From Bacilli bacterium (lineage in GTDB: Bacteria > Bacillota_I > Bacilli_A > RF39 > UBA660), in contig JAZRPV010000058.1 of assembly GCA_045649455.1 (NCBI GenBank), positions 106-64,105 on the forward strand: DNA of 64,000 nt. Reading direction: 5' to 3'. Made by a program: the position numbers and the translations under genes. Positions 18,552 through 44,871 of the stretch are shown here, in pieces (positions within the stretch are counted from its first letter, which is position 1; every line of letters starts with the position of its first letter). The notes beneath the pieces are model-generated. The model ran no database searches. It was not told where the DNA came from and saw nothing but the letters and a program-made list of their open reading frames with translations.

Positions 18552-18582
18552 AAAAAAAAGAATCTATAATAATTATAGATTC
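18552..18582 (-). terminator. Strong intrinsic terminator closing the Tad/T4SS cluster
   Basis: Perfect 10-bp stem gaatctataa/ttatagattc with a 3-nt loop, followed on the minus strand by T8. It begins 1 nt after the TAG at 18583-18585. Confidence 0.75.
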
Positions 18583-19827
18583 CTATTTTACGATATATGG
18601 ATTTTCTTTTGATCCATCTCCACTCTTATAAAGTGTTCTTGAATTTAAGTGAATAACTGGTCTTAAATTAGAATAGTTATTTACTGTTTTTGTTTTAATT
18701 TCTCCATCTGTATCGATTGAGTAAGCTTCATAAGTATTTTCTTTTACTGGAGTTACTGTCCACCATTCTTCACCATTTACTAAATAGTTATAATTTTGGC
18801 ATGCTGCAGATAAAGAATTTTTACAATTAGTATCAGTACTTGCTGACATATATTCAGATACTGTTAGTAATCCTACTAATTGTTGTTTTGCTACTTCTCT
18901 ACATTCAGATGCATTATCTGAACCTTGTTCAGTTTTTGAACGTTTTCCAGTACATAAGTTGAATGGTACTATACGTGCTTTATCTTTATCACTTAAGAAC
19001 AATTCGGCATCTTCTGTATCTTCTGGATATTTTAAGAATTCATTAATACTTTCTCTAATTCTACTTGTTGAATAAGTATTAATTCCAGAAGCATAGTCAA
19101 CTGAGTGATTATATCTATCATCCCATGGTAATCCATATGATGGATATTCATCAGTAATTAATACCATTTCTCCTGTTGAAGTTATTTTTACAATTCTCCA
19201 TACTCTTAAATCTAATTGTACATAGTTATTAACAACTTCTCCACGGAATACTTTGTTTCCTGCTTTATTATATAGACCATATCCATTTGAAGTATTTTTA
19301 TTATTACTTTCTACTACTCTATATAATTCTTGAGTCATGTATAATTCACCACAATTTAATTTTGGTGTATATAAGTGTGTTCCGTTAGAACTTTGTACAT
19401 TAACTGATCCTGTACATACTGAACCTTCTGGTACATATTCTTCTAATGGTTTCATTTCTCCTGCTGCAGAAAGTGTTCCACAATCTATTTCAATTGAAGA
19501 TGTTCCTGTTGGTAAACTTTCTGGATGCTTTTGAAAATATGATTCAGCGGCATTTACCATAATTGTTTCAATTTCTTCATATGTGTATGATCTGTTTATT
19601 AAGCTTAATACAATTATTATTAATAATACAACAATTACAATACCACCAATTATTACGAAAGCAAATTTAGTCATTTGGTCTTTCATATTAGGTTGATTAT
19701 ATGATGAAGTTTGTTCTTCATAATCATCTTCTTCATCATACTCATCAATTATTATTTCCGCTTCTTTTTCTTTTGTTGTTTGTGTTTCTTTAATATTTTT
19801 TGCTAAATTGAAATCAGTATCTTTCAT
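18583..19827 (-). CDS. Membrane-anchored surface protein with one WRI/NPY module (paralogous to the modules in 41315-43225)
   Basis: Acidic N-terminus, single TM (FAFVIIGGIVIVVLLIIIVLSLI) and an 8-Cys ectodomain. Contains RVWRIVKITSTGEMVLI and the C-terminal LRPVIHLNSRTLYKSGDGSKENPYIVK. Confidence 0.6.
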   Translation of the reverse strand: MKDTDFNLAKNIKETQTTKEKEAEIIIDEYDEEDDYEEQTSSYNQPNMKDQMTKFAFVIIGGIVIVVLLIIIVLSLINRSYTYEEIETIMVNAAESYFQKHPESLPTGTSSIEIDCGTLSAAGEMKPLEEYVPEGSVCTGSVNVQSSNGTHLYTPKLNCGELYMTQELYRVVESNNKNTSNGYGLYNKAGNKVFRGEVVNNYVQLDLRVWRIVKITSTGEMVLITDEYPSYGLPWDDRYNHSVDYASGINTYSTSRIRESINEFLKYPEDTEDAELFLSDKDKARIVPFNLCTGKRSKTEQGSDNASECREVAKQQLVGLLTVSEYMSASTDTNCKNSLSAACQNYNYLVNGEEWWTVTPVKENTYEAYSIDTDGEIKTKTVNNYSNLRPVIHLNSRTLYKSGDGSKENPYIVK

Positions 19828-19844
19828 ATTTATATCTCCTTTTA

Positions 19845-22127
19845 TTAATTATCAAAAAAATCATCGAAGAAGTCATCGTCGTCATTATCATCTGGAATAT
19901 CAAGATTAATTGAAGGTTTTACTGGTTCTTCTTGTAATCTTGGTAACTCTTTTGGTTGTTCATTAACTACAACTGGTTTTGCAGGTTCCAATTTTGGAAG
20001 TGTTGTTGGTTCAAATACATCTTCATCTAATTTTTCAATTGGTTTTGATTCTGCTATTGTTTCTTTTATTTCTTTCTTTTCTTCTGCTTCGATTTCTGCT
20101 ATTTTTGCATCTATTTTCTTGATTAATTCATCAACATTGAATCCAAAATCTTCATCATCTTCTGCTGGAACTGGATCACTTAATCTTTCTGGTTTAGTGA
20201 TTGGTCTTACAGGATTAGAAGATTTACCTCTACTCATTCCCATTTCCATTGGAGGAAATTCAAATTCTTTTTTATCTTCTAATGGTTCATCTTTTCTTGT
20301 TAAGAAATCTGGTAAGGCTTGAGATTGATTTGAATTTGCTTGACGCATTAAATCAATCGGAGGCATATCTGTTGGTAGAGATTTCTTATCCATATCAGCA
20401 TTATTCATCATTTCTAGTAATTTCTTCTTTTTTTGAGACTTAACAAACTCTTTAATATCGAATGTTCTTACCGGTCTCTTAGCTCTTGTTGGATATTTTG
20501 CTGTTGGATATCTTTCACCCCAATCTAATTGGAAGTATGGAGTAAATTTAGTTTTAAATGGTTGTTTTCTGATTCTTAAGATAATTACTTCGAATTGTTT
20601 CATACGTTGTAAGTCTGAAACTGTTACTAATGGTGTTGATGCAGTTTTATCATCTTTCTTAGATTTAACTTCACCACACATCTTAGAAATTTCTTCTAAG
20701 GCTTTTAATTCGGTTGTAATTAAGTAAATAATATTACCACAGTTACCTCTAATTGTTTCAGCATCTTCTTTTCCATACACTGAATCTAATTGAGCAAAGT
20801 TTTGGATAATCATTGTAAATCTAATTGCTCTGGAACGGGCAGCTGTGATCATTGTTGTAACATCTTTTAGTGGAGGCATGTTAGCAAACTCATCTAATAA
20901 GAAGTTTGTTCTAACAGGTAATTTACCACCGTGTTTTTGTGCTACTGAAATTAATGTTTCATAAATTTGTTTTAATAAAATTGTTACTAATGAGTGATAT
21001 GTTTTCTTTTCATCTTGAATAACGATGAATACAGCAGTTGGTCTTTCACCAATACTTTCTAAGTCTATATCACTGTGTGATAACATCTCACTTAAGTTTT
21101 CACGAGATGCGAATAATTTAACTTTTTGTTTGAATACTGAAAGGATTGATCCTTTTGTTTCTGATGGTGCCATGATTGTACTTGATGCATTGATTGCTGC
21201 AGCACTTGCAGGATCTTTTGCCGCAAAGTATTCTTTAATATATGTTGATGCTCCAAATTTTTCTTCACCAATTGTAGTTGCTAATGAAATACTATTGATG
21301 TTTATTTCTTCTGGTCTTGCATCTTCAAATAATCCTAAGGCTACTCCAGAGAAATAGTCTGCTGATGTTTTTTCCCAGAATGGATCAGCATTTTTATTTG
21401 AATCATCATAAAGGATGTTTAAAGCTAAGTCATCTAATAACTCAATTGCTTTATCTTGTTTACCCATTTTATACATTTTATATGGTAGTGACATTGGGTT
21501 CCATGCATTACCATTTTGAGGATCACGGAAATTTAGTAATAGTATTTGATATCCTTTTTTACGTAGCATTACACTAGTTTTTTCATAAATTTCACCTTTA
21601 GGGTCAGTGATAATCATAGATTCTCTAGCTTTTGCTAAACTATGTACTAAAGGAAGAATAACAGTTTGAGTTTTACCAGAACCAGTTGCCCCGATTACTA
21701 ATGAGTGGTATTCACTATTATCTACCCACATTTCATCTTTATTTAATACTAATGGAACTCCAGCTGTTTTAGATCTTTTTTGTTGAATTTTAACACATTC
21801 TAATTCTTCTTTAATTTCTTTTTCTTTTGCCCATCTAGAATATCCTTTATCTTTCTTTTCAGTTGTTAATCCAAATCCTTTTTCTCTTTCAAAGAAATAT
21901 GATTTTACACTAACAAATAATCCTATGATTGATAAGATGTAAACAAAGATTGTATCTAAAATGTGGTCTGGCATTAAAGCTGGCAAAGGATTTAATCCTG
22001 ATAATCTACCTGCTTGTGCAAATGTTAATATATTTGACACTGCCATAGCAATTACAAAGAATAATACGATTGCAATAATCATAAAACGCATTAGATCTTC
22101 TGGTGTTGCTCTAAATTTAAATTTCAT
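19845..22127 (-). CDS. VirD4/TraG-type type IV coupling protein with a long acidic C-terminal tail
   Basis: Two N-terminal TM helices, Walker A GATGSGKTQ and FLLDEFANMP. About 215 residues of low-complexity P/E/K tail end in DDNDDDDFFDDFFDN. Confidence 0.88.
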   Translation of the reverse strand: MKFKFRATPEDLMRFMIIAIVLFFVIAMAVSNILTFAQAGRLSGLNPLPALMPDHILDTIFVYILSIIGLFVSVKSYFFEREKGFGLTTEKKDKGYSRWAKEKEIKEELECVKIQQKRSKTAGVPLVLNKDEMWVDNSEYHSLVIGATGSGKTQTVILPLVHSLAKARESMIITDPKGEIYEKTSVMLRKKGYQILLLNFRDPQNGNAWNPMSLPYKMYKMGKQDKAIELLDDLALNILYDDSNKNADPFWEKTSADYFSGVALGLFEDARPEEININSISLATTIGEEKFGASTYIKEYFAAKDPASAAAINASSTIMAPSETKGSILSVFKQKVKLFASRENLSEMLSHSDIDLESIGERPTAVFIVIQDEKKTYHSLVTILLKQIYETLISVAQKHGGKLPVRTNFLLDEFANMPPLKDVTTMITAARSRAIRFTMIIQNFAQLDSVYGKEDAETIRGNCGNIIYLITTELKALEEISKMCGEVKSKKDDKTASTPLVTVSDLQRMKQFEVIILRIRKQPFKTKFTPYFQLDWGERYPTAKYPTRAKRPVRTFDIKEFVKSQKKKKLLEMMNNADMDKKSLPTDMPPIDLMRQANSNQSQALPDFLTRKDEPLEDKKEFEFPPMEMGMSRGKSSNPVRPITKPERLSDPVPAEDDEDFGFNVDELIKKIDAKIAEIEAEEKKEIKETIAESKPIEKLDEDVFEPTTLPKLEPAKPVVVNEQPKELPRLQEEPVKPSINLDIPDDNDDDDFFDDFFDN

Positions 22128-22151: not shown

Positions 22152-22160
22152 ATTATAACA
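22152..22160 (-). promoter_or_regulatory. Candidate extended -10 promoter (TGTTATAAT) upstream of the VirD4-like gene
   Basis: TGnTATAAT lies in the 52-nt gap, about 25 nt upstream of the ATG at 22127. AT-rich background makes chance matches common. Confidence 0.3.
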
Positions 22161-22179
22161 TTAAGTTTATTTTATTTCA

Positions 22180-22956
22180 TTATTGATTTGATATAAGTAA
22201 ATCAAATTTTTCTTTATTTAATTGAAATAACATGTCTTCTGGTTCTTGTACACTATATTTTGCACAAGTTAGTATTAATTCATGTTTGTCATCATCATTT
22301 ATATCTAAGAATGTTCTAATATATGGCTTACATCCATTACCATAATTAGCTTTTTCTATATTAGTATACATTGAATATATTTTTTGTTCTTTTACCATAA
22401 ATACTATGGAGAATATTGTATCTGGATAAAAATCTGAAGCAAAAGCGTTACTTATAACATAGAATTGTTCTTCTACTCCATCAGCATCAATATCAAAATT
22501 AACAATATTATTAACTGTCATTTGTGATGATGTTGATAAATTATTATCTTTTAAGACTTGATGTACATAAGTGTTATTGTTATTTTCTTTTGTTTCAAAC
22601 TCTTTAATTTTTAAATCGTAGTTAGCTTTATATGCAATTAATTCTCCTTCCATTTTTACGGCTGTCTTATTTGAATTAAAAGCATACCATTTGTTGTCAT
22701 CATACCACATAGAGTACTCTCCAAAATATTTATTATCTAAAAATACTTTGTACTCTTGCCAATTTAATGAATCTAATGTTTCTTCTCTTGTTATATTTAA
22801 CCATGACTTGTTGGAGTAATCCCAAACAGTATTATCTCCAACAAGTAAAGTTAATTTTCTTTGTCCATTTTTTATGTTAGAAAGTCCATAAATTAGAAAA
22901 AAGACTACTAAATATACTACTAAAATAATTGTAATTACTTTATATCTACTTGACAT
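22180..22956 (-). CDS. Bitopic membrane protein of unknown function (VirB8/TcpC-like candidate by position and topology only)
   Basis: N-terminal TM (VITIILVVYLVVFFLIYGL) plus a ~225-aa ectodomain, located between the wall hydrolase and VirD4. Confidence 0.5.
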   Translation of the reverse strand: MSSRYKVITIILVVYLVVFFLIYGLSNIKNGQRKLTLLVGDNTVWDYSNKSWLNITREETLDSLNWQEYKVFLDNKYFGEYSMWYDDNKWYAFNSNKTAVKMEGELIAYKANYDLKIKEFETKENNNNTYVHQVLKDNNLSTSSQMTVNNIVNFDIDADGVEEQFYVISNAFASDFYPDTIFSIVFMVKEQKIYSMYTNIEKANYGNGCKPYIRTFLDINDDDKHELILTCAKYSVQEPEDMLFQLNKEKFDLLISNQ

Positions 22957-22969: not shown

Positions 22970-25291
22970 TTATACTTTGTACCAAGCTAATGTACTTGTG
23001 TTTCTCCAATTATATTGACCCCACATGTCTGTTGATGAACTTCCTGGGTCCATCATTATGATTGTATCACCTTGAACGGCATCTATTGCTACCCAGTGTT
23101 GTCCTGTGTTACCTTTTACTTCGGCAACTACATAGTATCCAGCACTTAACATTTCTTTAATTTTGTTCATTTTTTGTTGTCTACTTTGACTATGGATATT
23201 TATTTGTCCTTGATAAATAAATCCTGGACATGCTTTTGTTGCAGCACCCCATACAAAGTTTCCACCACTTACAAATCCACCATTTCTATTTAAGAATTCT
23301 ACAAATGTTCCTGGGTTGAAATCACCTTGAATATTTGTTGGTAAACCGCTCTTGGCAATTAACATTGATACAGATGTTGCTAAACATCCAATTTGTTTAA
23401 TTGTTTTTCCACTGTTACCCATTGGTACGCCAATCCATGGACCTTCATATTGTTTCCAACTTGCAAATGGTCCAGTTGAAACCATTCCACATGCAGAATT
23501 GTTTCCTGAATTACATGCCATCTTTTGGATATCGGCTGCACCTGAGGCTCTTTTTCCAGTGTTATATATTTCCATTAATATTTGTTTATAATTATATCCT
23601 TGTTTTGCAAGTGCATTAAATTTATTTTGTTCTGTAGATGTATATCCTGTTGAAATAATATATCCGTTGGCATCTACTAATACTTCTCCTTGGGTTTCAG
23701 CAGCAGCTACTCTTATTACACTATCTGCTGGTAATGGATTTCCTCTATTTCTTCCACCTGGTACATGACCACTTACAACATAACCACCTTGGCCATCTCC
23801 ACCACCCATTGCTGTACATCCTTCATTGATGTTACAGAACACTTGGTCGGCTACGCATGATGAAATTTGTAATATCCATTGTCCGTTTTCTTGCTCTAAC
23901 TTTAATCCTCGAGCATTTCCCATCGCAGTAGGTCTAGCTAAAGCAAAGCTTCTTGCCGCTACCATTTGAGCTTTAATTGCTTCAATATGGAACGATGTTC
24001 CTACTTCGGCATAAGCAACTCCTGCTACATAATCTTCAAATGGAACTAAATCTTGATCAATTGGTGTTGTGTAATTTCCATTTCCATATTTACCACCACA
24101 TTGCATTAATCTAACCATTAAGTTAGAAATTTGTAATGCCTTAGTATATGTTCCACTTCCACCTATTCTAAATCCTTTTATATCATATATACATGTTCCT
24201 GTTGCAGCACATGTTGTTGAATCTTTTCCAATTAAATCAAAATATCTAGATATATAATCAAAGACATCTTCTGTCAATTGTTCTCTATCTGCTTGTGATT
24301 TTGTTGGGAAGTATTTTTTAAATATTTTATTTGTTAGATTTTGTTTAAATAAATCTTCATTATAACTATTACCTTGGAACATAGCATTTGCTATTTCTTG
24401 TAATCTGGCTTTAGTCATATATTTGTAATTATAATCAGGATTATTAACACTTAGAACGTGATAAACAGCTACAAGTTTAATTGTATCTACTGATTTACCT
24501 CGTGTTTGATAATCTAATTTAATATCATTTAATCTTTCATAGAAAGCTTTGGCATCTTTATTTTCTGGTTGGAAGTCAATTCCACCATTTTCTCCACCAC
24601 TATATGTTGCAGCTCCTAGGGCATCGTTATATTCTCCAATACTTCCAGAACCAGCACTAGCAACTACAGTAATTAATAGTATACCAACTAATCCTCCTAC
24701 GATAAGTCCTAGTATCATTTTTTGTTTGAAAGTTAATTTTGCTGAAAAGTTAAATCCACCTTTTGAAGAATCTTCATCAGCTTCTTCTCCTGGAGGTGTA
24801 TCATCTCCACCAAATGAACTACCAAAACCACCTGATTTTCCACCTAAAGCTCCAAGTCCTGATTTTTCTCCTCCACCTGATGGTGTTGATCCAGAACCCA
24901 TACTTGAAGCGGCTCCTCCTGCGGCATTTGCAGCTGCTCCACCAGTACCACCGGCTCCACCTTTACCGCCATACATATCAATTCCTTTGTCAACAGCATC
25001 TGTTACTCCTGAATCATTTAATTGTTTGGCAGCTTTACCCATTCCGGGCATTCTATTTAAGGCTTGTCCACCTTTATTTAATATCTGTTGTCCTGCTTTA
25101 GTATTGGCAAGTGCATCTACTGCTTTACCGCCAAGAGGGCCTGCATAGTATGTTGCGGCCCCTTTTGCGGCAGTCTTTAAAGCTTTTGCCGAAGCTTGTT
25201 GTTCTTGTTGTTTTTGACTTTGTTTTTCATCCATTGGCGATGCTTCATTGCCACTAAAATTTGAATTGTTTCTTCTACCTTCGTATGACAT
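22970..25291 (-). CDS. T4SS-associated cell-wall hydrolase: Gly-rich N-terminal region, TM, SpoIID/LytB-like domain, C-terminal papain-like Cys peptidase (C39-like/CHAP-like)
   Basis: About 195 aa of G/A/S-rich sequence, then TM ILGLIVGGLVGILLITVV. SpoIID-like EDYVAGVAYAEVG...IKAQMVAARSFAL. C-terminal IGCLATSVSML ... GQHWVAIDAV Cys/His pair. Confidence 0.75.
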   Translation of the reverse strand: MSYEGRRNNSNFSGNEASPMDEKQSQKQQEQQASAKALKTAAKGAATYYAGPLGGKAVDALANTKAGQQILNKGGQALNRMPGMGKAAKQLNDSGVTDAVDKGIDMYGGKGGAGGTGGAAANAAGGAASSMGSGSTPSGGGEKSGLGALGGKSGGFGSSFGGDDTPPGEEADEDSSKGGFNFSAKLTFKQKMILGLIVGGLVGILLITVVASAGSGSIGEYNDALGAATYSGGENGGIDFQPENKDAKAFYERLNDIKLDYQTRGKSVDTIKLVAVYHVLSVNNPDYNYKYMTKARLQEIANAMFQGNSYNEDLFKQNLTNKIFKKYFPTKSQADREQLTEDVFDYISRYFDLIGKDSTTCAATGTCIYDIKGFRIGGSGTYTKALQISNLMVRLMQCGGKYGNGNYTTPIDQDLVPFEDYVAGVAYAEVGTSFHIEAIKAQMVAARSFALARPTAMGNARGLKLEQENGQWILQISSCVADQVFCNINEGCTAMGGGDGQGGYVVSGHVPGGRNRGNPLPADSVIRVAAAETQGEVLVDANGYIISTGYTSTEQNKFNALAKQGYNYKQILMEIYNTGKRASGAADIQKMACNSGNNSACGMVSTGPFASWKQYEGPWIGVPMGNSGKTIKQIGCLATSVSMLIAKSGLPTNIQGDFNPGTFVEFLNRNGGFVSGGNFVWGAATKACPGFIYQGQINIHSQSRQQKMNKIKEMLSAGYYVVAEVKGNTGQHWVAIDAVQGDTIIMMDPGSSSTDMWGQYNWRNTSTLAWYKV

Positions 25292-25312: not shown

Positions 25313-27103
25313 CTAGAATCCTCCGCCTGAACCAAATGAATCTAATTCTTCTTTTGTTACGGCTACATTTATTCTCATACGACGAGAACCACATACGAAT
25401 AAAGCTTCTCCTTGAGAATAGTGTTTAATACTATCTTTTTCATTTTCATTTAAATCAATTAATTGACTTAAATCTTCAACTGCTTGTTTCTTTAATCCCA
25501 TTACTAAATAGTAAGAAGCATTATCGAAAATAGCTTTACCTTGAGTGATTACTGATGGTGCAGCAAAGTCACTAGGTTGTTGTGTAATGATAATTGTTCC
25601 TGTATTGTACTTACGAGCACGTCTTTGTACTTGAGCTAAGAAATCAGCTCCTAATACGTTATTTTCTCCTAATAACACGTGTGCTTCATCAATCATCATT
25701 ATTGTATCAATATTGTAATCTAAACATAGTCCCCATGCGAATTTAATTACATTAAAGAATAATGCATTTCTAATATTTGAATCAGTATTCATTAATTCTT
25801 TAATATTAAATACCATGAAGTCACTGTTTTTACGAATTGTTGTATGACCATTGAAATAGAATTGTAATTCTTTTGTTAATGGTCTTACTTTTAATTCAAG
25901 ACGTTCCATAATATCACGTTCTTGAGTCATATCTGTCATTGACATTAAACGACCTCTAATTGTTGCATATACGTCAGAGAATGTTGGATAATCTTTTGAT
26001 GTATAGTTTGAGAAATCTGTATTAAAGTCAATACCAAATCTTTTGTATGTATCTTGTACAACTTCACTAAACATTGTTAATACATCTTCTTGAATAGATG
26101 GATCATAATATTTCATGAAAGCTTTTAAGAATTGAAGTGTTCTTGTTAATACTGTGTATCCAAGACCTTGTTTAATTTCTTCTTCATCAGCATCTATAAT
26201 TACTTCTAATGGGTTAATTAAACCAAATTGTCCACCTTTACCGATGTCAACACAGTCTCCACCAAATGCTTTTGTAATTTCACGATATTCATCTTCTGGG
26301 TCAACTACTACGATTTGACAACCATTTCTGATATGTGTTCTTAACATTAATTTAGCTGCTGTAGATTTTCCTGATCCTGATGTACCAAGAATAATCATGT
26401 TAGCATTATTTCTGTTATGTTCTTTTCTTATCTTATATAAGAATTGATTAAATAAAATAACTCCTCCAGAGAAGTCTACTCCTAATAAAGTAGAAAGTCC
26501 TGGGTCTTTAATACTATCAAAAATAAATGGATACATTGCTGACATTGTTACTGATGGAATCGGTGTTCCAATTCTTTGTTCAATATCTTGAGATGGGAAA
26601 ATTGGTAAAATTGATTTTAATACCTTTTCTTGTTCAAAACGTAAAGATACAGCTTTTAATTCCATTGCATCTAAGTAGTTTTTAACATTTACTTTCTTCA
26701 TTTCAAGTTCTTCTTTTGTATCAGCAGTTATCATAATATGCATTTGGAAATCAAATACTTTTGATTGTCCACCTGCAATCATTGAAGTGAAGTATTCCAA
26801 ACTTTCAGCATCTTGTCTAATTCTTTCACGTACTGTTTGGTCTCTTTCAGTTCTATATCTTTCTTTCAAGTCTGCAACTTGTTTATTTAACATTTTAACC
26901 ATTTCTTGAAATGGTACGGGGATGTGTTTTACAACTATTTTAATCCCAGGCATATTTGTTAATGAAGATAAATATCCTGGAGTAATATATTTTGGCCATG
27001 ATACAACTGTTAAGATAGTTGCATATTTATCACTTATAAAAAATTCACTCGCCGAAAATTGTAATCCTTTTGGCGCTATTTGACTTCTTAATCCTGTACT
27101 CAT
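25313..27103 (-). CDS. VirB4-type T4SS ATPase, C-terminal 596-aa part
   Basis: Walker A GTSGSGKST, Walker B MMIDEAH and a typical Gram-positive VirB4 middle region (IAPKGLQFSASEFFISDKY...). The start overlaps the upstream ORF stop as ATGA. Confidence 0.88.
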   Translation of the reverse strand: MSTGLRSQIAPKGLQFSASEFFISDKYATILTVVSWPKYITPGYLSSLTNMPGIKIVVKHIPVPFQEMVKMLNKQVADLKERYRTERDQTVRERIRQDAESLEYFTSMIAGGQSKVFDFQMHIMITADTKEELEMKKVNVKNYLDAMELKAVSLRFEQEKVLKSILPIFPSQDIEQRIGTPIPSVTMSAMYPFIFDSIKDPGLSTLLGVDFSGGVILFNQFLYKIRKEHNRNNANMIILGTSGSGKSTAAKLMLRTHIRNGCQIVVVDPEDEYREITKAFGGDCVDIGKGGQFGLINPLEVIIDADEEEIKQGLGYTVLTRTLQFLKAFMKYYDPSIQEDVLTMFSEVVQDTYKRFGIDFNTDFSNYTSKDYPTFSDVYATIRGRLMSMTDMTQERDIMERLELKVRPLTKELQFYFNGHTTIRKNSDFMVFNIKELMNTDSNIRNALFFNVIKFAWGLCLDYNIDTIMMIDEAHVLLGENNVLGADFLAQVQRRARKYNTGTIIITQQPSDFAAPSVITQGKAIFDNASYYLVMGLKKQAVEDLSQLIDLNENEKDSIKHYSQGEALFVCGSRRMRINVAVTKEELDSFGSGGGF

Positions 27104-27657
27104 ACTGGCATCACCATTCCAAACTCTGTTGTGTCTCCCCCATTTAAGAAGTTATCCATAATAACTCTTAAGTCTGCATTGCTTGCTTGTGAAGCATTTA
27201 GTCCACAAGTAGCTAATCCATTAATCATCATTCTTACTCTTTTTTGTAAAAGTTCAGGGTCTTTTGCTCTGAATAAGAAATAATATTCTGTATCTACGAT
27301 ATTGTTATGAATAAATGTTTGTCCTTTTTCAATATCTTGTCTAATTAATTTTCTAATCGCTGGATTTTGTGTTTCATTGTAAAGTAGTTGCATTTGTGAC
27401 ATGTAAACAGAAATATCTACAGGTCTGTCGGCAACAACTAACCAGAACTCAAAATCTATCATATTATAAAAGTTCTTTAATCCTATTAATGTATTTTCTT
27501 GCGAAATACCATCTAAGATGAAGATATTTTTTGGAGATATCTTAACTCCTGCAACTTTATGATTATCACGTGTAATAATCATATTGTTTTGAATACCTCT
27601 TAAAGGTAACCAATCTTCAGTATAACCACTACTTGGTTTTTTTGTTTTTGTAGCCAA
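27100..27657 (-). CDS. VirB4 N-terminal-domain-like protein (separate 185-aa ORF, TTG start)
   Basis: YTEDWLPLRGIQNNMIITRDNHKVAGVKISPKNIFILD... resembles the extreme N-terminus of Firmicute VirB4 proteins. 185 + 596 aa adds up to about one normal VirB4 length. Confidence 0.6.
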   Translation of the reverse strand: MATKTKKPSSGYTEDWLPLRGIQNNMIITRDNHKVAGVKISPKNIFILDGISQENTLIGLKNFYNMIDFEFWLVVADRPVDISVYMSQMQLLYNETQNPAIRKLIRQDIEKGQTFIHNNIVDTEYYFLFRAKDPELLQKRVRMMINGLATCGLNASQASNADLRVIMDNFLNGGDTTEFGMVMPV

Positions 27658-36299: not shown

Positions 36300-37106
36300 T
36301 TATGTTTCAGACCAAACAGTAACTTTGTTGATCCAATCTTTTAATTGTTCACTACTAATTTCTAAGTCCCCAGGAGTATCTTTTAATCCTTCATTTGTAG
36401 GAACTGGAATTAGTGTTGAATCATATGTTCTTAAATATTCTGCTTTCTTTAATAAAATGTAATATTCTTCTGGTACAGCAAATACAATCATCGATGGAAC
36501 TCTTTGTTCATCTAAGTTTGCAAATACTGGTTTACCATTTGAATCTTTTACCGCAAGTACTTCTACGTTAGAAATAAATTTTCCTAACATGATTTTATCA
36601 GCATCAGCAGTCATTGTTTCACCATCAGAAAGTTTATTAACTGCTTTTAGATAAATATCAATGTAGTTTCCTGGATAAATTGAGTTTCCATATGTTGTTG
36701 CTGTTGTAACTGATAAATTATAAAGTACGTATCCTTTTGGATATTCTAAGATAATATTTGCAGGTAATTGTTCTTTAGATACTACTGTTCTATTGAAGAA
36801 GAAACTTCCTTCTGGAATTACAGTATCTGCTGCTGAATATTTATCCACGATATCTAATTGATTTCTCATTACTTTTTCAGATAACATTGATTCAGTTACT
36901 TGTCTTGTTCCAATCATATCTGAGGTAATTTGCGTACCTGGATTAATTTGTACTTTAGCATATGGAACTGTTATTGGACTTAATTCTGATTGAATTCTCA
37001 TATTATATCCAACATATAATACTACAAACGCTAATACTACACCAACGATTGTTACTGTATTTTTATTTGAAAATAATCGTCCAATTGATTGTGTTAAGTT
37101 TCCCAT
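36300..37106 (-). CDS. CpaB/RcpC-like Flp pilus assembly protein (SAF domain)
   Basis: N-terminal TM (VTIVGVVLAFVVLYVGY) and a SAF-like segment ITVPYAKVQINPGTQITSDMIGTRQV. Sits immediately upstream of the ATPase. Confidence 0.6.
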   Translation of the reverse strand: MGNLTQSIGRLFSNKNTVTIVGVVLAFVVLYVGYNMRIQSELSPITVPYAKVQINPGTQITSDMIGTRQVTESMLSEKVMRNQLDIVDKYSAADTVIPEGSFFFNRTVVSKEQLPANIILEYPKGYVLYNLSVTTATTYGNSIYPGNYIDIYLKAVNKLSDGETMTADADKIMLGKFISNVEVLAVKDSNGKPVFANLDEQRVPSMIVFAVPEEYYILLKKAEYLRTYDSTLIPVPTNEGLKDTPGDLEISSEQLKDWINKVTVWSET

Positions 37107-37647: not shown

Positions 37648-40485
37648 CTATTCGTTATTTACACCAGGAGAACCAATTGTTACAACTGCTTTTGTATCTA
37701 ATATATTTGGTTCTTCTCCAACAATTCTAAATAAGTTACTTTGATATGACATAACTCCGTTGATTGATGAAGTGTCTCCTAGCCATTCTGTATAGTTATA
37801 TTTTTTATTATATCTTCTTAATGTTGTTAAATCTGAAGGTGTTAATGTGAATTCATAATCTGGATCTTCTGCATAAATTGAATCAGCATTTGCTTCAATT
37901 GATTCTTTTAAGTCTTCTGGATTAATCTTATATTTATCATTCTTTTGACTTAAGATTGTTGCTTTTGATGTCCAGTTGAATCCGATTTCTCTACGTTGAG
38001 CTTCAGTTACATTCATTCCACTATTAGGGAATAGGTTTCCTCTATCTACAGCTCTAATAATATATCCTGCAGTTTCTTCAATTTCATCAGGTGCTGCTGC
38101 AGCTCCTCTTCCTCCAGGTTGATTATTAATTGCGTAGAAACATTTTGTTGTTAAATCCCATCCGAAGTATCCAAAGTCTTTAGCAATTGCTTCAATGTTG
38201 TATCCATCAGATGTTCCTGTTTTAGCTGTTACTGCTGGTGCAGTTCCAACTCCATTATTTGTAACTTTCCATGTCCACCAGTTTGCATTTACTGTTTTTG
38301 CATTTAGTGGGATACAGAATTTTTTATTTTCTAAATACCATCCTGATAAATCATCTGGTGTTGAGAATGAAATTTCACCAGTCTTATTATTGATGTAAGT
38401 TCCTGGGAATCCCCATTCTGTTAAGTACCATCTATTGTTATCTGAACTTGCATAACATCCATCATAATCAATTATTGTACTTGAATCATTTTTAAATCCA
38501 ATTCCATCAGTGAATGTATCTTTTGCTAATGCGTTATATTCATTAGTTCCTTCATTTGGATTTGTTTTATGTTGTGAGTTTGAAGTATATGGATAATATA
38601 CTTTATGAACTGTATATGGTTCTTCTCCATCTTTAGTATCATACTTAACTGCAATTGTGAATGTTGCTGTTTTCTTTGAACATGTTGCAGCAGCTTTACA
38701 AGCACTTACTGCACTGTTATATAATTCAATATTCTTAGCGTCATCAGCTACTCCTGAACCTGGGTTAAGGTATCTTCCTCTTGCAACTGTTTCGCCTCTC
38801 CACCAACAGATATCTGTACATAAGCTTCCGTTAGATTTTATTTGACGTTTAAATCCATTTTCATCAGCAATATAGTTAACTCCATTGATCTTCATAGATA
38901 GTCCTCTACCTGAATCAATGTAGAAACGAGATAATGATGCTGGATCATAACGATCGTATGTATTTGGATCTTCTCTCCAGAAAATTTCATCTCCAGATCT
39001 AATGAAGCATCCATCTGGGTTATCAATTAAACATTGATCTAATGTGTAATTAATTTTTGAAATTCCATTATTTGCTACGTTAGCATAATTAATTTTTAAA
39101 TTTTTATTATCTTTATAAACTTGTTTATAACATTTTAAACTACAACTTTGTGTGTACTTTCCACCGTCACAGTTTTTAATACATCTTTCAAAGTCTTCTG
39201 TTGGACCGGCTCTAGGATATGGTCTCATTTTGTTTTCTTGTGACTTACAAGCTCCTTCAGGATAATCATATTGTCCGTCATATGTTTTTGGTTTTGAATC
39301 GGCTTTTACGTCTGCGCTACATTTTACATAACTTTCAACTTTAACTGTATATTCGAAACATAATCCAGCTTTAGAAGCTACTGGTGGACCATATTCTACT
39401 TTTACAGCTTCTTCACAAACTCTATCACATACAGTTTTTGTTACTTTTTCTACATCACCAGGTGCATAGTTATATGTATATTCTACTGTTTGTGAATCAG
39501 TAATTTGTGTTGAATAATAACTTTGTGATGCTCTTTCAGTTTGAGTTGTTGCACACTTAGTTTCATATGATAATGCTGTTCCTTTTGGAACTGGTGCAGT
39601 TAATGTACCATTTGTTTTTCCTGCCGCAATTGCCGCATTTTTAATAGCATTAAATGTTTCATTGAAACTTGCTGTTCCACCAGATACTGGTGTTGAGTAT
39701 TGTTTCCAGATTGAAATGGCATCTCCAATCATTTCTGTTAATTTTTTATCGTCATATACATGATTTTTATTAACTCTAGCATTGAAACAATAAGGAATTA
39801 ATTCTGCATAGTATTGTTTTCCTTCTTGAGATACTGCTGCATAGTTATATTTATCAAAATCATCTTTCTTTATTACTGTGATTGAATTAAATTGATTTGT
39901 ATCATAAACTCCTGTAATAAAGTTTGTACAAATTTTACCAGGACCTACATGCGGATTATCAATTGTTTGGTCACCTTGATAAATGCTTGCTGTTCCTCCG
40001 ATCATTGCTTCATATTCTAAGTCAATATAGAAGATACTGTATTCCATATTATTAGTTTTAGCATATTCTTCATCATCTAATCCTAAACATCCAGCTTGGA
40101 TATCAGTAGTTTTCATTGTTACTTCAACTGCTGCTTTTCCATTTACTGCATCAATATTTAAGTATAGCGGTTGATCTTTTTTGATGATACCTAATGTATT
40201 GATATCTCCAACTAATGTTCCTGAAGTAACTTTTGTTACTTTAAATTCAGTATCTCCAGCATCACTACCATTTACATCAATGATGTATTGATTTCCTGCT
40301 GCATCAACTTTTCTTAACTCTAAATCATATTTTGATGAAATTGTAGATATATTACATTTACTTTCATATTTTTGTAATCTTTCTTCTTGTGTTTCTGCTA
40401 AAACGTCATATCCAAATGTAACTAATCCAATTGCTGCAACTGCTGCTGTTAATTTAAATAACTTTTTACATTTCAACATTTTCAT
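37648..40485 (-). CDS. Large secreted Cys-rich protein (candidate adhesin or fibre-tip protein)
   Basis: Sec signal peptide (MKMLKCKKLFKLTAAVAAIGLVTFGYDVLA/ETQ). 945 aa with about two dozen Cys, often in close pairs (CDRVCEE, CIKNCDGG...CSLKC, CLIDNPDGC, CTDIC, CKAAATC). No LPXTG or TM tail. Confidence 0.6.
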   Translation of the reverse strand: MKMLKCKKLFKLTAAVAAIGLVTFGYDVLAETQEERLQKYESKCNISTISSKYDLELRKVDAAGNQYIIDVNGSDAGDTEFKVTKVTSGTLVGDINTLGIIKKDQPLYLNIDAVNGKAAVEVTMKTTDIQAGCLGLDDEEYAKTNNMEYSIFYIDLEYEAMIGGTASIYQGDQTIDNPHVGPGKICTNFITGVYDTNQFNSITVIKKDDFDKYNYAAVSQEGKQYYAELIPYCFNARVNKNHVYDDKKLTEMIGDAISIWKQYSTPVSGGTASFNETFNAIKNAAIAAGKTNGTLTAPVPKGTALSYETKCATTQTERASQSYYSTQITDSQTVEYTYNYAPGDVEKVTKTVCDRVCEEAVKVEYGPPVASKAGLCFEYTVKVESYVKCSADVKADSKPKTYDGQYDYPEGACKSQENKMRPYPRAGPTEDFERCIKNCDGGKYTQSCSLKCYKQVYKDNKNLKINYANVANNGISKINYTLDQCLIDNPDGCFIRSGDEIFWREDPNTYDRYDPASLSRFYIDSGRGLSMKINGVNYIADENGFKRQIKSNGSLCTDICWWRGETVARGRYLNPGSGVADDAKNIELYNSAVSACKAAATCSKKTATFTIAVKYDTKDGEEPYTVHKVYYPYTSNSQHKTNPNEGTNEYNALAKDTFTDGIGFKNDSSTIIDYDGCYASSDNNRWYLTEWGFPGTYINNKTGEISFSTPDDLSGWYLENKKFCIPLNAKTVNANWWTWKVTNNGVGTAPAVTAKTGTSDGYNIEAIAKDFGYFGWDLTTKCFYAINNQPGGRGAAAAPDEIEETAGYIIRAVDRGNLFPNSGMNVTEAQRREIGFNWTSKATILSQKNDKYKINPEDLKESIEANADSIYAEDPDYEFTLTPSDLTTLRRYNKKYNYTEWLGDTSSINGVMSYQSNLFRIVGEEPNILDTKAVVTIGSPGVNNE

Positions 40486-41302
40486 CTACTCCTTTCATCA
40501 AGTTCTTTACTTCTTTGTAATTTGAACTTTCTTTTACTTCATAGTTTGTAGTTTTTGAATTATTATCAATCATCTTACCTACAACTAAGAATTGTTTTTT
40601 ATCATTACCATACATTCTTGTACATGTAATTAAACTTATTACTTTTTCATCTTTATTTACTTCTACATCGTATTTATATAGACTCTTATCTAAACTTCTT
40701 TGAATAAAATCAGCTACTTCTTCATCTTTATATTCATCTGGATTATATAAATCTAAGTTATATATTTCATCAAAATATACTGCGAAAATTTGATATAAAT
40801 AATTCTTTCCATCTATTGTATATTGAATATATTGATTTTCTTTAGCAAAGTCTAAATATACAAATGCCATTAAATCTTCAAATCTTGTAAAGTAGTCTAG
40901 TCCTACTTCTGGTTTTGTTGAAAGATTTAATACATTGTGTCCTTGAATATTTACTCTCTTTTGGATTTTTTCTTCTGGATATTCGTTCCATAGGTAATCA
41001 TCCTTATTAACTTTATCCATACTTTCTACTGAGTCATATTTAATGATTGGTGTATCTATTTTAGTACCTTGAACTCTTAACCAACCAATTGTTGTATAGC
41101 CGTTTTCATTTTTTTCTTTTTTCTTTTCTTTTTTTATGTTTTTAACTCTATCAACTGTTTTAAAAGTTGATGATGTTGCATTATTTGAAAAGTATACTAT
41201 CAATCCTACTGGAATCGATACTACCAAGATAAATGCTAAACATGCTAGAACTAACCTTGCAAGTTGTCGTTTTTGCTTTTTTGTCAGTCTCTTCTTTGCC
41301 AT
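40466..41302 (-). CDS. Class B sortase-like protein (catalytic Arg position apparently Gln)
   Basis: N-terminal TM, TIGWLRVQGTKIDTPII, His motif NIQGHN, Cys motif SLITCTR. The residue aligned by eye to the SrtB catalytic Arg (K-R-IVVV) reads K-Q-FLVV. Confidence 0.6.
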   Translation of the reverse strand: MAKKRLTKKQKRQLARLVLACLAFILVVSIPVGLIVYFSNNATSSTFKTVDRVKNIKKEKKKEKNENGYTTIGWLRVQGTKIDTPIIKYDSVESMDKVNKDDYLWNEYPEEKIQKRVNIQGHNVLNLSTKPEVGLDYFTRFEDLMAFVYLDFAKENQYIQYTIDGKNYLYQIFAVYFDEIYNLDLYNPDEYKDEEVADFIQRSLDKSLYKYDVEVNKDEKVISLITCTRMYGNDKKQFLVVGKMIDNNSKTTNYEVKESSNYKEVKNLMKGVDENVEM

Positions 41303-41314
41303 TTTCTCACCTTC

Positions 41315-43225: not shown

Positions 43226-43235
43226 AACACCCCTC

Positions 43236-44786
43236 CTATCTTAGTTTATATACATAATTCTTATTACGTACTGTATATTCTAATTCAATGCTTTGCGATG
43301 TTTCAAGCGCTGCAGGAACCTTGATATATAAGTATTTTCCGTAGTAAGTTTTTTGTATTGGACTCTTAATTTCTACACTCTTACTCTTATTATTATCTAT
43401 GTAATTAATTTTACCATATTTGCTTGAAAAGTCAATCATGTCTTTGCCTTCATAAGTGTCTGAAGCAAAGGCAATTTTTAATACTTTGTAGTTCTTTGGA
43501 GCAGTATATGTTCCGTATAAATTACTACATGATGATGTATTACAAATACGATATGTGTAGTCAAATTTATTTAATATTTGATATTCTTCAAATACGATAG
43601 TTTCTTTTTCATCTCGTACTTTAAATTTAAATTCTTCTCCGATTAATAAAGTGTTTTCTTTTTTGATTTCTGATATATTTTCTAAATTAAGTTTTATTTT
43701 ACGTAAGTGGATATTTCCACCATTAAGTTCTTGATAATATAAGACAAAACGATTTTCTTTTAGTTCTTTACTTACTTTAAAGACTAATATCATATTTAAA
43801 GATTCATCTCTTCTTAGTTCTTTTGATTTGTAAGTATCTCCTAAATCTTGAAATTCTGTTCCAAAAGTTTTAGCAGTATAAGTGTAGTCATGAGTCCCAT
43901 TCATAATATGGAATCTTGCTAAGTCTAATTCACGCTTTTCAGCGTTATTAGTAATTGTAACATCAACGATAATAAAATTTGATTCTTTGGAAATTACTTT
44001 TCCATTGAAATCTTTGTCCGTAAAATAACTTTTATTTAATTGAATTGTGTACCCATCGGCACTGAATGTTTGCCCTACTTTGTATGACTTGTTTGTTACA
44101 AAGGCATATGTGTAGGCGTTTTTACCTAAGATTAATATTAAGATTAAAATTATGCAGTTACATACAAATTTATGTTCCTGGTAGAAATAGTTTGTGTTTC
44201 TAAGCAATCTTTTAATTTGTCTTTTGACGTTATCTTTATCTATATTGATATTAATTTCTAATTCTTCTTTATCTTCATTAGTTAAATCAATATATTCTTC
44301 ATCAAATTTAAAATTAAATTTATTTAAGTCTAAACCTAAGATACGTATAATAAATACAATTATCGATGGGAACTGTAAGAATGTAATTATTCCCATCATA
44401 TCTAGGTAAGCTCTAAATACAGCTTTTTCTAAGTTTCCATTGTAAGTGTCAAAAAATCCTATTAACAATGTATAGACTATGAACATTGCAGCGTAACCTA
44501 TTACAGGGAATAAGTACAATTTCCAAGGCTTTTCTTTCTTCTTTAGTAAAAGTACCAAGGTAACGCTTGATGCGATTAATACAATTAAAGCTAACATTGT
44601 AAATAGGGATAAGTATTTAGTAATTGGTTCGTTGTAACTATCATATGTTCCTAATTCAGTAAATTCACTTAGGAATGCATTTACTTTATTAGTTATGTAA
44701 TACAAATAGAAACATAATAATAGTAAGACAACATGGACTTTTTTGAAGTGTTTTATCAAAAAAGCATATGGCTTTCTAATAATCAT
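43236..44786 (-). CDS. Polytopic membrane protein with a C-terminal DUF4352-like extracellular beta domain (first gene of the cluster)
   Basis: Four to five N-terminal TM helices, a charged linker, one more TM, then FIIVDVTITNNAEKRELDLARFHIMNG, typical of DUF4352-type Ig-like domains. Confidence 0.5.
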   Translation of the reverse strand: MIIRKPYAFLIKHFKKVHVVLLLLCFYLYYITNKVNAFLSEFTELGTYDSYNEPITKYLSLFTMLALIVLIASSVTLVLLLKKKEKPWKLYLFPVIGYAAMFIVYTLLIGFFDTYNGNLEKAVFRAYLDMMGIITFLQFPSIIVFIIRILGLDLNKFNFKFDEEYIDLTNEDKEELEININIDKDNVKRQIKRLLRNTNYFYQEHKFVCNCIILILILILGKNAYTYAFVTNKSYKVGQTFSADGYTIQLNKSYFTDKDFNGKVISKESNFIIVDVTITNNAEKRELDLARFHIMNGTHDYTYTAKTFGTEFQDLGDTYKSKELRRDESLNMILVFKVSKELKENRFVLYYQELNGGNIHLRKIKLNLENISEIKKENTLLIGEEFKFKVRDEKETIVFEEYQILNKFDYTYRICNTSSCSNLYGTYTAPKNYKVLKIAFASDTYEGKDMIDFSSKYGKINYIDNNKSKSVEIKSPIQKTYYGKYLYIKVPAALETSQSIELEYTVRNKNYVYKLR

Positions 44787-44821
44787 ATAATTCTAATCTC
44801 CCTATTTTCTATTCTCTTATA

Positions 44822-44827
44822 ATTATA
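44822..44827 (-). promoter_or_regulatory. Candidate -10 box (TATAAT) for the cluster's first gene
   Basis: TATAAT lies in the 112-nt gap between the greA terminator and the ATG at 44786. The -35 is poor (T-run). Confidence 0.3.
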
Positions 44828-44871
44828 CCTTAGATTAGTACAAAAAAAAAGAACTAAATATGAATTTAGAC

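Follow-up and report, generated by a model that had tools for sequence, protein, structure and literature searches.

What does a bacterium do with a conjugation-type apparatus that is encoded in its chromosome among housekeeping genes, with no relaxase found beside it? This question is raised by a cluster of 22 genes (named g1 to g22, Table 1) in a 64-kb stretch of contig JAZRPV010000058.1 from a Bacilli bacterium (assembly GCA_045649455.1), which was analysed as a whole and is called the window below. A first-pass annotation of the window had described the cluster as a Tad-like module joined to a type IV secretion system (T4SS) of the monoderm type, and both gene content and homology to plasmid proteins bear out this junction. 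The reading that we tentatively prefer sees in the cluster a chromosomal copy, passed on vertically and without a relaxase, of the apparatus of pXO2/pAW63/pBMB67-type plasmids (MPF_FATA-like), which has become a core trait of its hosts and would act by cell contact and a channel, with DNA as its cargo.

Plasmid relatives of the two modules

The closest plasmid relatives of the VirB4 protein of the cluster are found on Bacillus thuringiensis plasmids and on a Mycoplasmatota plasmid. The B. thuringiensis plasmid pBMB67 encodes a MobP3 relaxase, a VirD4 of the CD1115 family, TrbL, PrgI and a split VirB4, and, some 8 kb beyond these, a large surface protein, DUF5411, SAF, an AAA ATPase, T2SSE, two membrane proteins, a small protein and DUF4320. 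Nine plasmid proteins are homologous to their positional counterparts in the cluster (g5, g6, g7, g8, g9, g16, g17, g18 and g21). A Priestia koreensis plasmid, typed MOBP, carries a matching Tad-like block, in which PGAP names a 'CpaF/VirB11 family' and a 'type II secretion system F family' protein, and the Mycoplasmatota plasmid, typed non-mobilizable, has VirB4 followed by SAF, AAA, CpaF, a hypothetical protein and T2SSF. The two modules travel together on at least three unrelated plasmids. Furthermore, VirB4, 'VirB11' and VirD4 have been described in the tra region of pAW63, pXO2 and pBT9727 (PMC1196294, PMC9673590), and a mix of cpa/tad and T4SS genes in Listeria LGI1, pXO1 and several clostridia (PMC2834635). 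The first-pass annotation had held that the T4SSs of monoderm conjugative elements do not include CpaF, TadB, TadC or CpaB, and had treated the composite as unknown. The pBMB67, Priestia and Mycoplasmatota plasmids contradict the former statement, and the published LGI1/pXO1-like regions and pAW63/pXO2 ATPases the latter. Judged from sequence, the composite architecture is inherited from a known, poorly characterised type of plasmid, whose apparatus already comprises three modules: the T4SS, the Tad-like module and the large surface proteins. The apparent novelty of the locus appears to lie in its domestication, as an order-wide, chromosomal, relaxase-less derivative that includes the Tad-like module; in the literature that we searched, no report links RF39, the order to which we assign the hosts (see below), with VirB4 or a T4SS.

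Within the T4SS half, the coupling protein g21 passes the cutoff of the NCBIfam family 'VirD4-like conjugal transfer protein, CD1115 family' (305.5 bits versus 250), while an exact-sequence lookup of the window's VirD4 found no record. VirB4 is split, with g17 and g18 mapping to one and the same model, VirB4_plasma. The larger part, g18, covers residues 295-891 of this model (361 bits, expectation value (E) 1e-107, cutoff 590) and matches the CD1110 family at E 3e-54, below the equivalog cutoff; in blastp searches, it aligns with pBMB67 VirB4 at E 1e-87. For g17, the split counterpart on pBMB67 is found at E 8e-12, and an ortholog contains PF26593 (TraC-like). Since the split is kept in all relatives and on plasmids, the split VirB4 is not a pseudogene. 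The polytopic protein g15 also matches the NCBIfam model of the Mycoplasma integrative and conjugative element (ICE) protein Mbov_0396 at 25.5 bits, below its cutoff, and in NCBIfam g15, g17 and g18 each have their best match in families of Mycoplasma ICEs. No Pfam or NCBIfam profile matches g16, which has a weak blastp match (E 0.003) to a 'PrgI family' protein of pBMB67. In the family formed by g13 and g14, 26 of the 49 members match PF18895 (T4SS_pilin); g13 further has a weak NCBIfam match to Mycoplasma MMCAP2_0566, and the orthologs of g14 range from 109 to 568 amino acids (aa), their N-terminal part differing greatly in length among species. A Peptidase_C39_2 domain was detected in an ortholog of the wall hydrolase g19. 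The membrane-anchored g20 matches no family in Pfam or NCBIfam, and a VirB8-like role for it is a guess. The T4SS assignments of the first-pass annotation are thus upheld by the CD1115-type VirD4, TrbL_4, SpoIID, the two parts of VirB4 on one model and the PF18895 family, as is its statement that three ATPases have intact Walker motifs, the translations containing GETGSGKT in g7, GTSGSGKST and MIDEAH in g18, and GATGSGKTQ and LLDEF in g21. The extreme C-terminus of g21 (19845-19900) consists of an acidic-aromatic tail, D(n)FFDDFFD(N/E/D), that is invariant in 60/60 orthologs (L002-L084) and is preceded by a hypervariable linker of about 200 residues, a pattern that suggests a conserved docking partner.

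The Tad-like half is anchored by g7, a secretion ATPase of the T2SSE family. Among sequences in the PDB, g7 scores 75 bits with FlaI, 72 with CpaF and 57 with VirB11, whereas in NCBIfam the VirB11 model (119 bits) ranks above the TadA-type model (108 bits) and FlaI is matched too, all far below cutoffs; on these scores, the NCBIfam models do not separate VirB11 from TadA-type for g7. The Priestia CpaF/VirB11 protein is found at blastp E 3e-55. Unusually for CpaF/VirB11-type ATPases, g7 has a long C-terminal extension (34465-35200) of about 250 aa, 70-260 residues in orthologs, that is rich in Pro, Glu, Val, Thr and Gln and hypervariable, differing in length and sequence in every species. The DUF5411 gene g5 lies directly upstream of the CpaB-like gene g6 in the window and in every locus read that far, and both pBMB67 (26 bits) and the Priestia plasmid have DUF5411 in the equivalent position. 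The SAF-domain protein g6 scores below the cutoffs of RcpC (25.4 bits) and TIGR03177 (34.9 bits), and aligns over its full length with two plasmid SAF proteins (blastp E 3e-28 and 3e-25).

Both g8 and g9 have the size and topology of TadB/TadC, and neither has a direct match in Pfam, NCBIfam or PDB sequences. The g8 orthologs, as a hidden Markov model (HMM), match the Priestia 'type II secretion system F family protein' at 50.7 bits (blastp E 4e-10 over 284 aa), and this partner in turn matches Pfam T2SSF at 24.2 bits (E 3.4e-5), below the cutoff of 25.2. The g9 HMM scores 57.9 bits with the protein that follows T2SSF on the Priestia plasmid and 39.9 bits with its pBMB67 counterpart, and hhalign links the g8 and g9 families as weak paralogs (E 2.5e-4). 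Comparison of both families with the T2SSF proteins of the Mycoplasmatota plasmid by hhalign was negative. An AlphaFold model of g8 is poor (predicted local distance difference test (pLDDT) score 51) because the usable alignment is too shallow, and its Foldseek matches are meaningless. When the g8 and g12 profiles were used in large homolog searches, only close relatives came up, annotated as 'hypothetical protein' and with no Pfam domain, and distant families were not reached.

The pilin-like g10, which matches no family in the profile scan, starts with a near-invariant MKAATGELNLTVITL followed by a hydrophobic helix, with G6, E7, L8, T11 and T14 invariant in 35 orthologs. The canonical Flp motif G/XXXXEY is absent from it: in MKAATGELNLTV, E stands at +1 after the Gly, and there is no EY at +5/+6. 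No TadV/CpaA prepilin peptidase (A24) was found in the 64-kb window. The next gene, g11, matches no family in Pfam or NCBIfam and is a candidate minor pilin in a TadE-like position, a place that is taken on the plasmids by DUF4320. Sequence profiles (Pfam, NCBIfam, PDB sequences) do not match g12. Its AlphaFold model shows an alpha/beta domain at the N-terminus and then a domain of the ParA/MinD type (SIMIBI), whose degenerate P-loop lacks the Walker A lysine. Foldseek retrieves FlhF, SRP54, HypB, ParA-family proteins and BcsQ (E 3e-4 to 2e-3), and the modelled fold is thus compatible with a TadZ-like protein, though not specific for one. The C-terminus of g12 (30996-31020) is a conserved basic-hydrophobic KIFGLFRR, which could be a MinD-like membrane-targeting helix; that it is a partner of the acidic VirD4 tail is speculation, but KIFGLFRR and this tail both look like docking or membrane-targeting peptides. 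Of the Tad assignments in the first-pass annotation, that of g7 is supported at the level of the T2SSE superfamily and those of g8 and g9 (T2SSF) by transitive homology; none of g6 and g8-g12 reaches a family cutoff.

Inheritance, constraint and layout of the locus

Domains of relaxases, integrases or recombinases, and replication and partition proteins were not found in the 64-kb window, nor was a tRNA, and no border (attachment, att) repeats were found around the cluster within it. The Pfam scan covered flanking open reading frames (ORFs) of at least 100 aa except those recognised from their translation, namely seven housekeeping-type ORFs that were judged in this way, among which Lon, trigger factor, aspartyl-tRNA synthetase, GatA/GatB and tryptophanyl-tRNA synthetase were named. 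The longest direct repeat bracketing the region measures 54 nucleotides (nt) at 78% identity (14242-14295 and 46188-46241). We rejected it as a pair of att sites: both copies read as promoters of the form TTGCAA-17-TGnTATAAT on the (-) strand, and they precede small (-)-strand genes (13768-14217 and 45490-46158) that share this strong-promoter design. No homolog of the cognate MobP3 relaxase is present in 1.7 Mb of sequence comprising the window and 88 related loci. About 18 kb of housekeeping genes flank the cluster on each side. On one side are rubrerythrin, Fur, Lon, trigger factor, aspartyl-tRNA synthetase, GatCAB, tryptophanyl-tRNA synthetase (TrpRS), RmuC, a VTT protein and a rhodanese, and on the other GreA, an HD hydrolase, U32 peptidases, MltG, RuvX, a rhomboid protein, LspA, RluD and DnaE. 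Pfam, tRNA and repeat scans, together with these genes on both sides, agree with the first-pass description of a chromosomal cluster with core-gene flanks and no mobility genes in the 64 kb.

A species-level scan of the contigs of one genome per species gave at least 527 matches, the best 80 of which were read in detail. Among these 80, VirB4 is 77-87% identical, and the loci belong to uncultured gut Bacilli, in records such as 'Tenericutes', 'Mycoplasma sp. CAG:877', 'Clostridium sp. CAG:710' and Candidatus Onthousia; close homologs of g8 are named Candidatus Faecimonas. We take these record names to stand for the GTDB order RF39. RF39-type bacteria have genomes of 1.5-1.9 Mb with a G+C content of about 30%, and are without several biosynthetic pathways (PMC7301438). 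A library of sequences clustered at 50% identity represents the clade by one close VirB4 at 73%, and the next relatives, at 43% and 40%, sit on 2-kb contigs without genomic context.

The locus is present and colinear in 80/80 of the species-level genomes read, with g6-g22 in the same order in nearly all loci, and a flank with rhodanese, VTT, RmuC and TrpRS is common to many; the complete order g1-g22 was found again in another species, on a 1.42-Mb circular contig. Among loci of sufficient length, about 95% have the Tad-like and T4SS halves side by side. VirB4 has a mean pairwise distance of 0.136, versus 0.197 for RmuC. The distances of cluster and flanking genes are correlated with coefficients of 0.57-0.67 (VirB4-RmuC, 0.57), which is as high as between two flanking genes (RmuC-VTT, 0.61), and between the two halves of the cluster the coefficient rises to 0.79-0.83 (VirB4-g8, 0.83), above that of either half with the flanking genes. 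The ratio of nonsynonymous to synonymous substitution rates (dN/dS) is 0.05-0.10 for cluster genes and 0.037 for RmuC. These comparisons indicate that the cluster is vertically inherited, is under strong purifying selection and co-diverges with its flanking genes, and the colinear loci, the shared flank, the low dN/dS and the co-divergence all support the domestication that the first-pass annotation had proposed.

The 22 ORFs span 18583-44786, all on the (-) strand. Gaps between them are 6-88 nt, the 88-nt gap holding only if g14 starts at ATG 30520, and the ORFs overlap at four junctions (g3/g4, g8/g9, g16/g17 and g17/g18); the start of g13 was corrected to ATG 30938, taken from orthologs. 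The G+C content of the cluster is 28-36%, with no sharp break relative to the flanks. A consensus terminator scan flagged neither of the two border hairpins because their stems are AT-rich, and both were read by eye. Promoters of the sigma-A type were counted at gene junctions, with stretches inside genes as controls. At the g12/g13 junction, 62/63 orthologous loci have a -35/-10 pair that is perfect or nearly so; the g9/g10 junction has a promoter matching at least 10/12 consensus positions in 48/58 orthologous loci, and the g20/g21 junction has a promoter in 29/38, whereas the g6/g7, g7/g8 and g15/g16 junctions have one in no orthologous locus. The in-gene controls gave no promoter at any tested junction, g9/g10 included, except for one at g15/g16. 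Because promoters are conserved at g9/g10, g12/g13 and g20/g21, the cluster is predicted to comprise at least four transcription units, with the T4SS core under a promoter of its own. The arrangement that the first-pass annotation had given, with 22 co-directional ORFs, short gaps and four overlaps, a terminator at either end and internal promoters, matches these data.

Table 1. Genes, promoter-like sites and terminators of the cluster and its borders (positions in the window)
Feature	Position	Strand	Basis or detail
greA terminator, hairpin + T8; GGTAATCA..TGATTATC	~44872-44898		read from sequence
Promoter-like site TTGTAC-17-TATAAT, 5' of g1, after greA terminator	44815..44840	(-)	read from sequence
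g1, polytopic membrane protein, 516 aa, Ig-like extracellular part	43236..44786	(-)	weak Pfam DUF4352
g2, membrane-anchored surface protein, 636 aa	41315..43225	(-)	Pfam Bact_surface_Ig-like E 4.8e-17
g3, sortase-like, LITCT motif	40466..41302	(-)	Pfam Sortase 29.7 bits vs cutoff 26.6
g4, secreted Cys-rich protein, 945 aa	37648..40485	(-)	position
g5, DUF5411 protein, N-terminal hydrophobic helix	37124..37630	(-)	Pfam DUF5411 E 3e-47
g6, CpaB/RcpC-like SAF-domain protein	36300..37106	(-)	plasmid SAF homology
g7, T2SSE-family secretion ATPase, FlaI/CpaF type	34465..36261	(-)	Pfam T2SSE E 2e-27
g8, TadB-like polytopic membrane protein, 300 aa	33549..34451	(-)	transitive T2SSF homology
g9, TadC-like paralog of g8, 268 aa	32743..33549	(-)	homology to g8 and plasmid proteins
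Internal promoter TTGTTA-17-TATAAT with TG, 5' of pilin-like g10	32698..32726	(-)	motif scan
g10, pilin-like, 55 aa	32499..32666	(-)	alignment of 35 orthologs
g11, 152 aa, N-terminal hydrophobic helix	32019..32477	(-)	position and topology
g12, two-domain TadZ/CpaE-like architecture	30996..32012	(-)	AlphaFold pLDDT 76.5
Internal promoter TTGACA-17-TATGAT, directly after g12 stop codon, 5' of T4SS half	30963..30991	(-)	motif scan
g13, VirB2-like T4SS_pilin protein	30609..30938	(-)	PF18895 in family; start from orthologs
g14, second T4SS_pilin-domain protein, with signal peptide	30041..30520	(-)	PF18895 E 0.0027
g15, VirB6/TrbL-like polytopic channel protein	27973..30024	(-)	Pfam TrbL_4 30.7 bits vs cutoff 27
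g16, VirB3/PrgI-like small membrane protein	27629..27949	(-)	position directly upstream of VirB4, and blastp
g17, N-terminal part of split VirB4	27100..27657	(-)	NCBIfam VirB4_plasma residues 98-276
g18, VirB4 ATPase part	25313..27103	(-)	Pfam P-loop_TraG and AAA_10
g19, wall hydrolase: SpoIID and C-terminal Cys-peptidase, Gly-rich N-terminus	22970..25291	(-)	Pfam SpoIID E 1.4e-11
g20, membrane-anchored, 258 aa	22180..22956	(-)	same position in 41 loci
Internal promoter ATGAAA-17-TATAAT with TG, 5' of VirD4 g21	22152..22180	(-)	motif scan
g21, VirD4-type coupling protein	19845..22127	(-)	Pfam T4SS-DNA_transf E 5e-56
g22, membrane-anchored surface protein, DUF6273 C-terminal domain	18583..19827	(-)	DUF6273 24.9 bits vs cutoff 23.5
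Terminator-like hairpin + T9, cluster end; GAATCTATAAT/TATTATAGATTC	18552..18582	(-)	read from sequence

Large surface proteins stand at both ends of the cluster. A 518-aa ortholog of g1 lies at the equivalent position in L087-L089, and g2 shares its N-terminal domain with g22, as seen in an alignment with g22 orthologs. The sortase-like call for g3 in the first-pass annotation is supported by Pfam, and NCBIfam gives a class B sortase match of 56 bits, far below cutoff. The translations of g2, g4 and g22 contain no C-terminal LPXTG with hydrophobic segment and basic tail. An 'LPTG' that follows the membrane anchor in both g2 and g22 was considered as an unusual sortase motif and rejected, only 'LP' being conserved across orthologs. 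No Pfam or NCBIfam family matches g4, which may serve the Tad-like module as an adhesin or tip protein; its positional counterparts on the plasmids are proteins of 851 and 993 aa upstream of DUF5411, and it has a weak blastp match (E 4e-4) to a Priestia Ig-like protein. In L060, L079 and L083 (about 4700-6970 in locus coordinates), a g22-like gene does not follow VirD4 but separates the two VirB2-like genes. This relocation and the variable second pilin indicate that surface-exposed parts are reshuffled while the ATPases stay fixed.

Three further observations concern single sites. A (-)-strand gene (50209-51129) that lies about 5 kb from the cluster, surrounded by housekeeping genes, encodes a fusion of an N-terminal T4SS_pilin domain (PF18895, E 1.5e-6) with an NlpC/P60 peptidase; this paralog of g13/g14, 32% identical to g13, may be an extra, unlinked component of the machine. 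In one metagenome assembly (L088, 18167-19959), VirB4 is broken into pieces of 195 and 358 aa, which could reflect either an indel error of long-read sequencing or a true loss of the gene's function in the strain concerned. The sole Rfam match is a T-box leader (RF00230, 129.6 bits, 13493-13730, (-) strand) upstream of the gatC-gatA-gatB-aspS operon.

Possible functions of the machine

Since the machine is fixed and strongly conserved, yet comes without the enzyme that starts DNA transfer, a change of use towards some core function between cells is probable, and by analogy with related systems this function is likely to be contact-dependent transfer of macromolecules. In the mechanism that we propose, contact between two cells would be made by the surface proteins g1, g2, g4 and g22 and a Tad-like fibre. 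The products of g5-g12 would assemble this fibre, with a CpaF-type ATPase, a TadB/C-like platform, CpaB-like and ParA-like accessories and pilin-like subunits. It may stand in for a pilus missing from monoderm T4SSs, as the first-pass annotation had suggested. The SpoIID/C39 hydrolase would open the cell wall, and the split VirB4 would form the membrane channel together with the VirB3-like, VirB6-like and VirB2-like proteins. VirD4 would then feed the substrate into this channel, recruiting either the substrate or an adaptor via its acidic-aromatic C-terminal tail. As for the cargo, we commit ourselves to DNA, which would pass between cells of the lineage independently of a relaxase or with a relaxase encoded elsewhere. 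DNA is favoured because VirD4 has been retained and belongs to a conjugal-transfer family, because the nearest families all move DNA, and because the T4SSs of Mycoplasma ICEs, which give the best VirB4 and VirB6 profiles, are known to support relaxase-less chromosomal transfer.

Several points weigh against this proposal. No relaxase, origin of transfer (oriT) or DNA-processing gene was found in the window, and the choice of DNA as cargo is therefore a guess; moreover, VirD4-type coupling proteins also serve protein-secreting T4SSs. The Tad-like calls for g8-g12 derive from transitive homology, fold class or position, with no family cutoffs passed, the pilin-like g10 is without the Flp processing motif, and the fibre itself is a prediction. 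The two halves have separate conserved promoters and might work independently. Their co-occurrence in relatives, which the first-pass annotation had proposed to check, holds for most of the long loci but breaks down in three of about 60 loci with enough upstream sequence, where the Tad-like genes do not adjoin the T4SS half: in L078 and L084 unrelated genes lie upstream of the T4SS half, and in L079 only g12 is kept with it. Finally, the order-level label of the relatives is our own assumption.

If the cargo is not DNA, the machine could have been exapted to deliver proteins or effectors to bacteria or host cells, or as a contact or feeding structure. We consider this rather unlikely, and nonetheless nearly as plausible as DNA exchange. 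Patescibacteria would offer a parallel, with a chromosomal T4SS of MPF_FATA origin that has no relaxase and whose genes are reported to be essential for epibiotic growth (PMC12102498), and exaptation would fit a lineage with small genomes that lack several biosynthetic pathways (PMC7301438), the lack of a relaxase in the window and of MobP3 homologs in the related loci, and the conservation of VirB4, g8 and g9 at a housekeeping level; the VirD4 tail could then dock an effector adaptor. However, profile scans recognised no effector, toxin/immunity pair or chaperone among the 22 genes, and the closest relatives of the cluster proteins are DNA-transfer systems. The parallel is also imperfect, in that the patescibacterial coupling protein is rarely beside virB4 and proved dispensable in the single species examined (PMC12102498), whereas VirD4 is in the cluster here and conserved. 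Alternatively, the halves could be mere neighbours, a Tad-like adhesion pilus and a T4SS with no functional coupling, as the separate conserved promoters before g10, g13 and g21 and the three deviating loci would suggest. This is improbable given that the modules co-travel on at least three unrelated plasmids, are adjacent in nearly all loci that extend far enough, and diverge together (r = 0.79-0.83) more closely than either does with the flanks.

Import of DNA, as by Helicobacter ComB or by archaeal Ced/Ted with type IV pili, would need no relaxase, and there are weak NCBIfam matches to CedD and CedB. Domesticated conjugation machineries that import DNA are known, for example Ced with Ups pili (PMC12102498). 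However, the matches to CedB and CedD span P-loop regions only, at 17-46 bits versus cutoffs of 600-700. Neither ComB nor Ced is known to have a VirD4-type coupling protein, and the presence in the cluster of a conserved VirD4 that passes a conjugal-transfer family cutoff makes a competence machine less likely; we regard it as quite improbable. Extremely improbable is an ordinary ICE, or a decaying remnant of one, with relaxase and integrase just outside the window. The proteins do belong to conjugation families, and VirB4 is broken in L088, but some 18 kb of housekeeping genes without a recombinase lie on each side, the window holds neither att-like repeats nor a tRNA, the same flank and gene order recur across many species, and dN/dS is low, with VirB4 more conserved than RmuC. 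The shared synteny, the constraint, the co-divergence and the lack of any MobP3 homolog in the window and the 88 related loci therefore exclude a recent ICE or a decaying remnant as the explanation.

The contact-dependent apparatus of plasmid origin that we prefer would be of interest beyond this locus. RF39-type Bacilli are common in human and animal guts and are known almost only from metagenomes, with small genomes and unexplained dependencies. The machine, which is as tightly conserved over hundreds of species as housekeeping genes are and at 26 kb takes up about 1.5% of a genome of 1.5-1.9 Mb, is probably central to the biology of the lineage and may underlie genetic exchange, partner attachment, or acquisition of nutrients and macromolecules. 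A bolder version, possible but doubtful, is that an order-level uncultured gut lineage depends on a conjugation-derived core organelle (T4SS channel, Tad-like fibre and adhesins) for obligatory cell-to-cell exchange. If so, the organelle would provide either relaxase-independent transfer of chromosomal DNA, effectively a built-in sexual system, or contact-dependent acquisition or delivery of macromolecules from partner cells; it would be a second independent case beside Patescibacteria and could explain the resistance of these bacteria to cultivation. The cluster also represents a natural experiment, in which the mating-pair-formation part, including the little-studied Tad-like module, was kept after DNA processing was lost, and the invariant VirD4 tail and the conserved internal promoters offer experimental handles.

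Comparison with known systems

On its putative assignments, the cluster would resemble the Tad/Flp systems, such as Aggregatibacter tad and Caulobacter cpa, in having a CpaB-like SAF protein, an ATPase of the FlaI/CpaF clade, two paralogous platform proteins of TadB/TadC size, a small pilin-like protein (about 50 aa) with a larger pseudopilin-like one after it, and a ParA/MinD-fold protein with an extra N-terminal domain (TadZ/CpaE). The cluster differs in that no protein reaches a Tad-specific cutoff, G/XXXXEY and, within the window, TadV/CpaA are missing, there is no secretin (as expected for a monoderm) and the ATPase has a long disordered tail. Precedents for a conjugation-type channel that works with a contact-making type IV filament are Ced/Ted with Ups pili and the T4SS of R64 (IncI) with its type IV thin pilus, and Ced/Ted is also a precedent for domesticated, relaxase-less conjugation machinery. 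However, Ced/Ted import DNA, are not known to have a VirD4 and have their pili at separate loci, and the R64 system comes from a plasmid of diderms and has a relaxase and a pilus of type IVb. Mycoplasma ICEs (Mbov_0396/Mbov_0397) give the best NCBIfam matches for VirB4, its N-terminal piece and the VirB6-like protein, at scores below the cutoffs of 590 and 70. These elements are not known to have a canonical relaxase and support chromosomal transfer; unlike the cluster, they are mobile, carrying a DDE recombinase, and no T2SSE/T2SSF module is known in them.

The T4SS of Patescibacteria (the candidate phyla radiation) shares with the cluster its chromosomal location, the absence of a relaxase, an MPF_FATA-derived origin, PF18895 proteins and a wide distribution in a lineage with reduced genomes, and it has been read as a case of co-option (PMC12102498). 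It belongs, however, to another phylum and another VirB4 clade, its coupling protein is rarely beside virB4, type IV pili are encoded separately and no Tad-like module has been reported within the patescibacterial gene cluster (PMC12102498).

The tra regions of the pXO2 family (pAW63, pBT9727, pBMB67) resemble the cluster in both modules. The T4SS module has a VirD4 of the CD1115 type, TrbL/VirB6, PrgI/VirB3, a split VirB4 and a wall hydrolase, and the Tad-like module has a surface protein, DUF5411, SAF/CpaB, a T2SSE ATPase, two polytopic proteins and small hydrophobic proteins. The plasmid counterpart of the g7 ATPase is named VirB11 in the literature (PMC1196294). The plasmid systems differ in carrying a MobP3/MOBP relaxase, which in pBMB67 is beside VirD4, and partition genes, none of which are in the cluster; pBMB67 is predicted and pAW63 experimentally known to be conjugative, whereas the cluster sits in a conserved chromosomal context. 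Protein identities between cluster and plasmids are 23-33%, and the gene order has changed: VirD4 is last in the cluster and first on the plasmid, and the ParA-like gene follows the pilins in the cluster but stands between SAF and the ATPase on the plasmid. Comparison with the pXO2/pAW63 plasmids could show what role the 'VirB11'/T2SSF module plays in monoderm conjugation.

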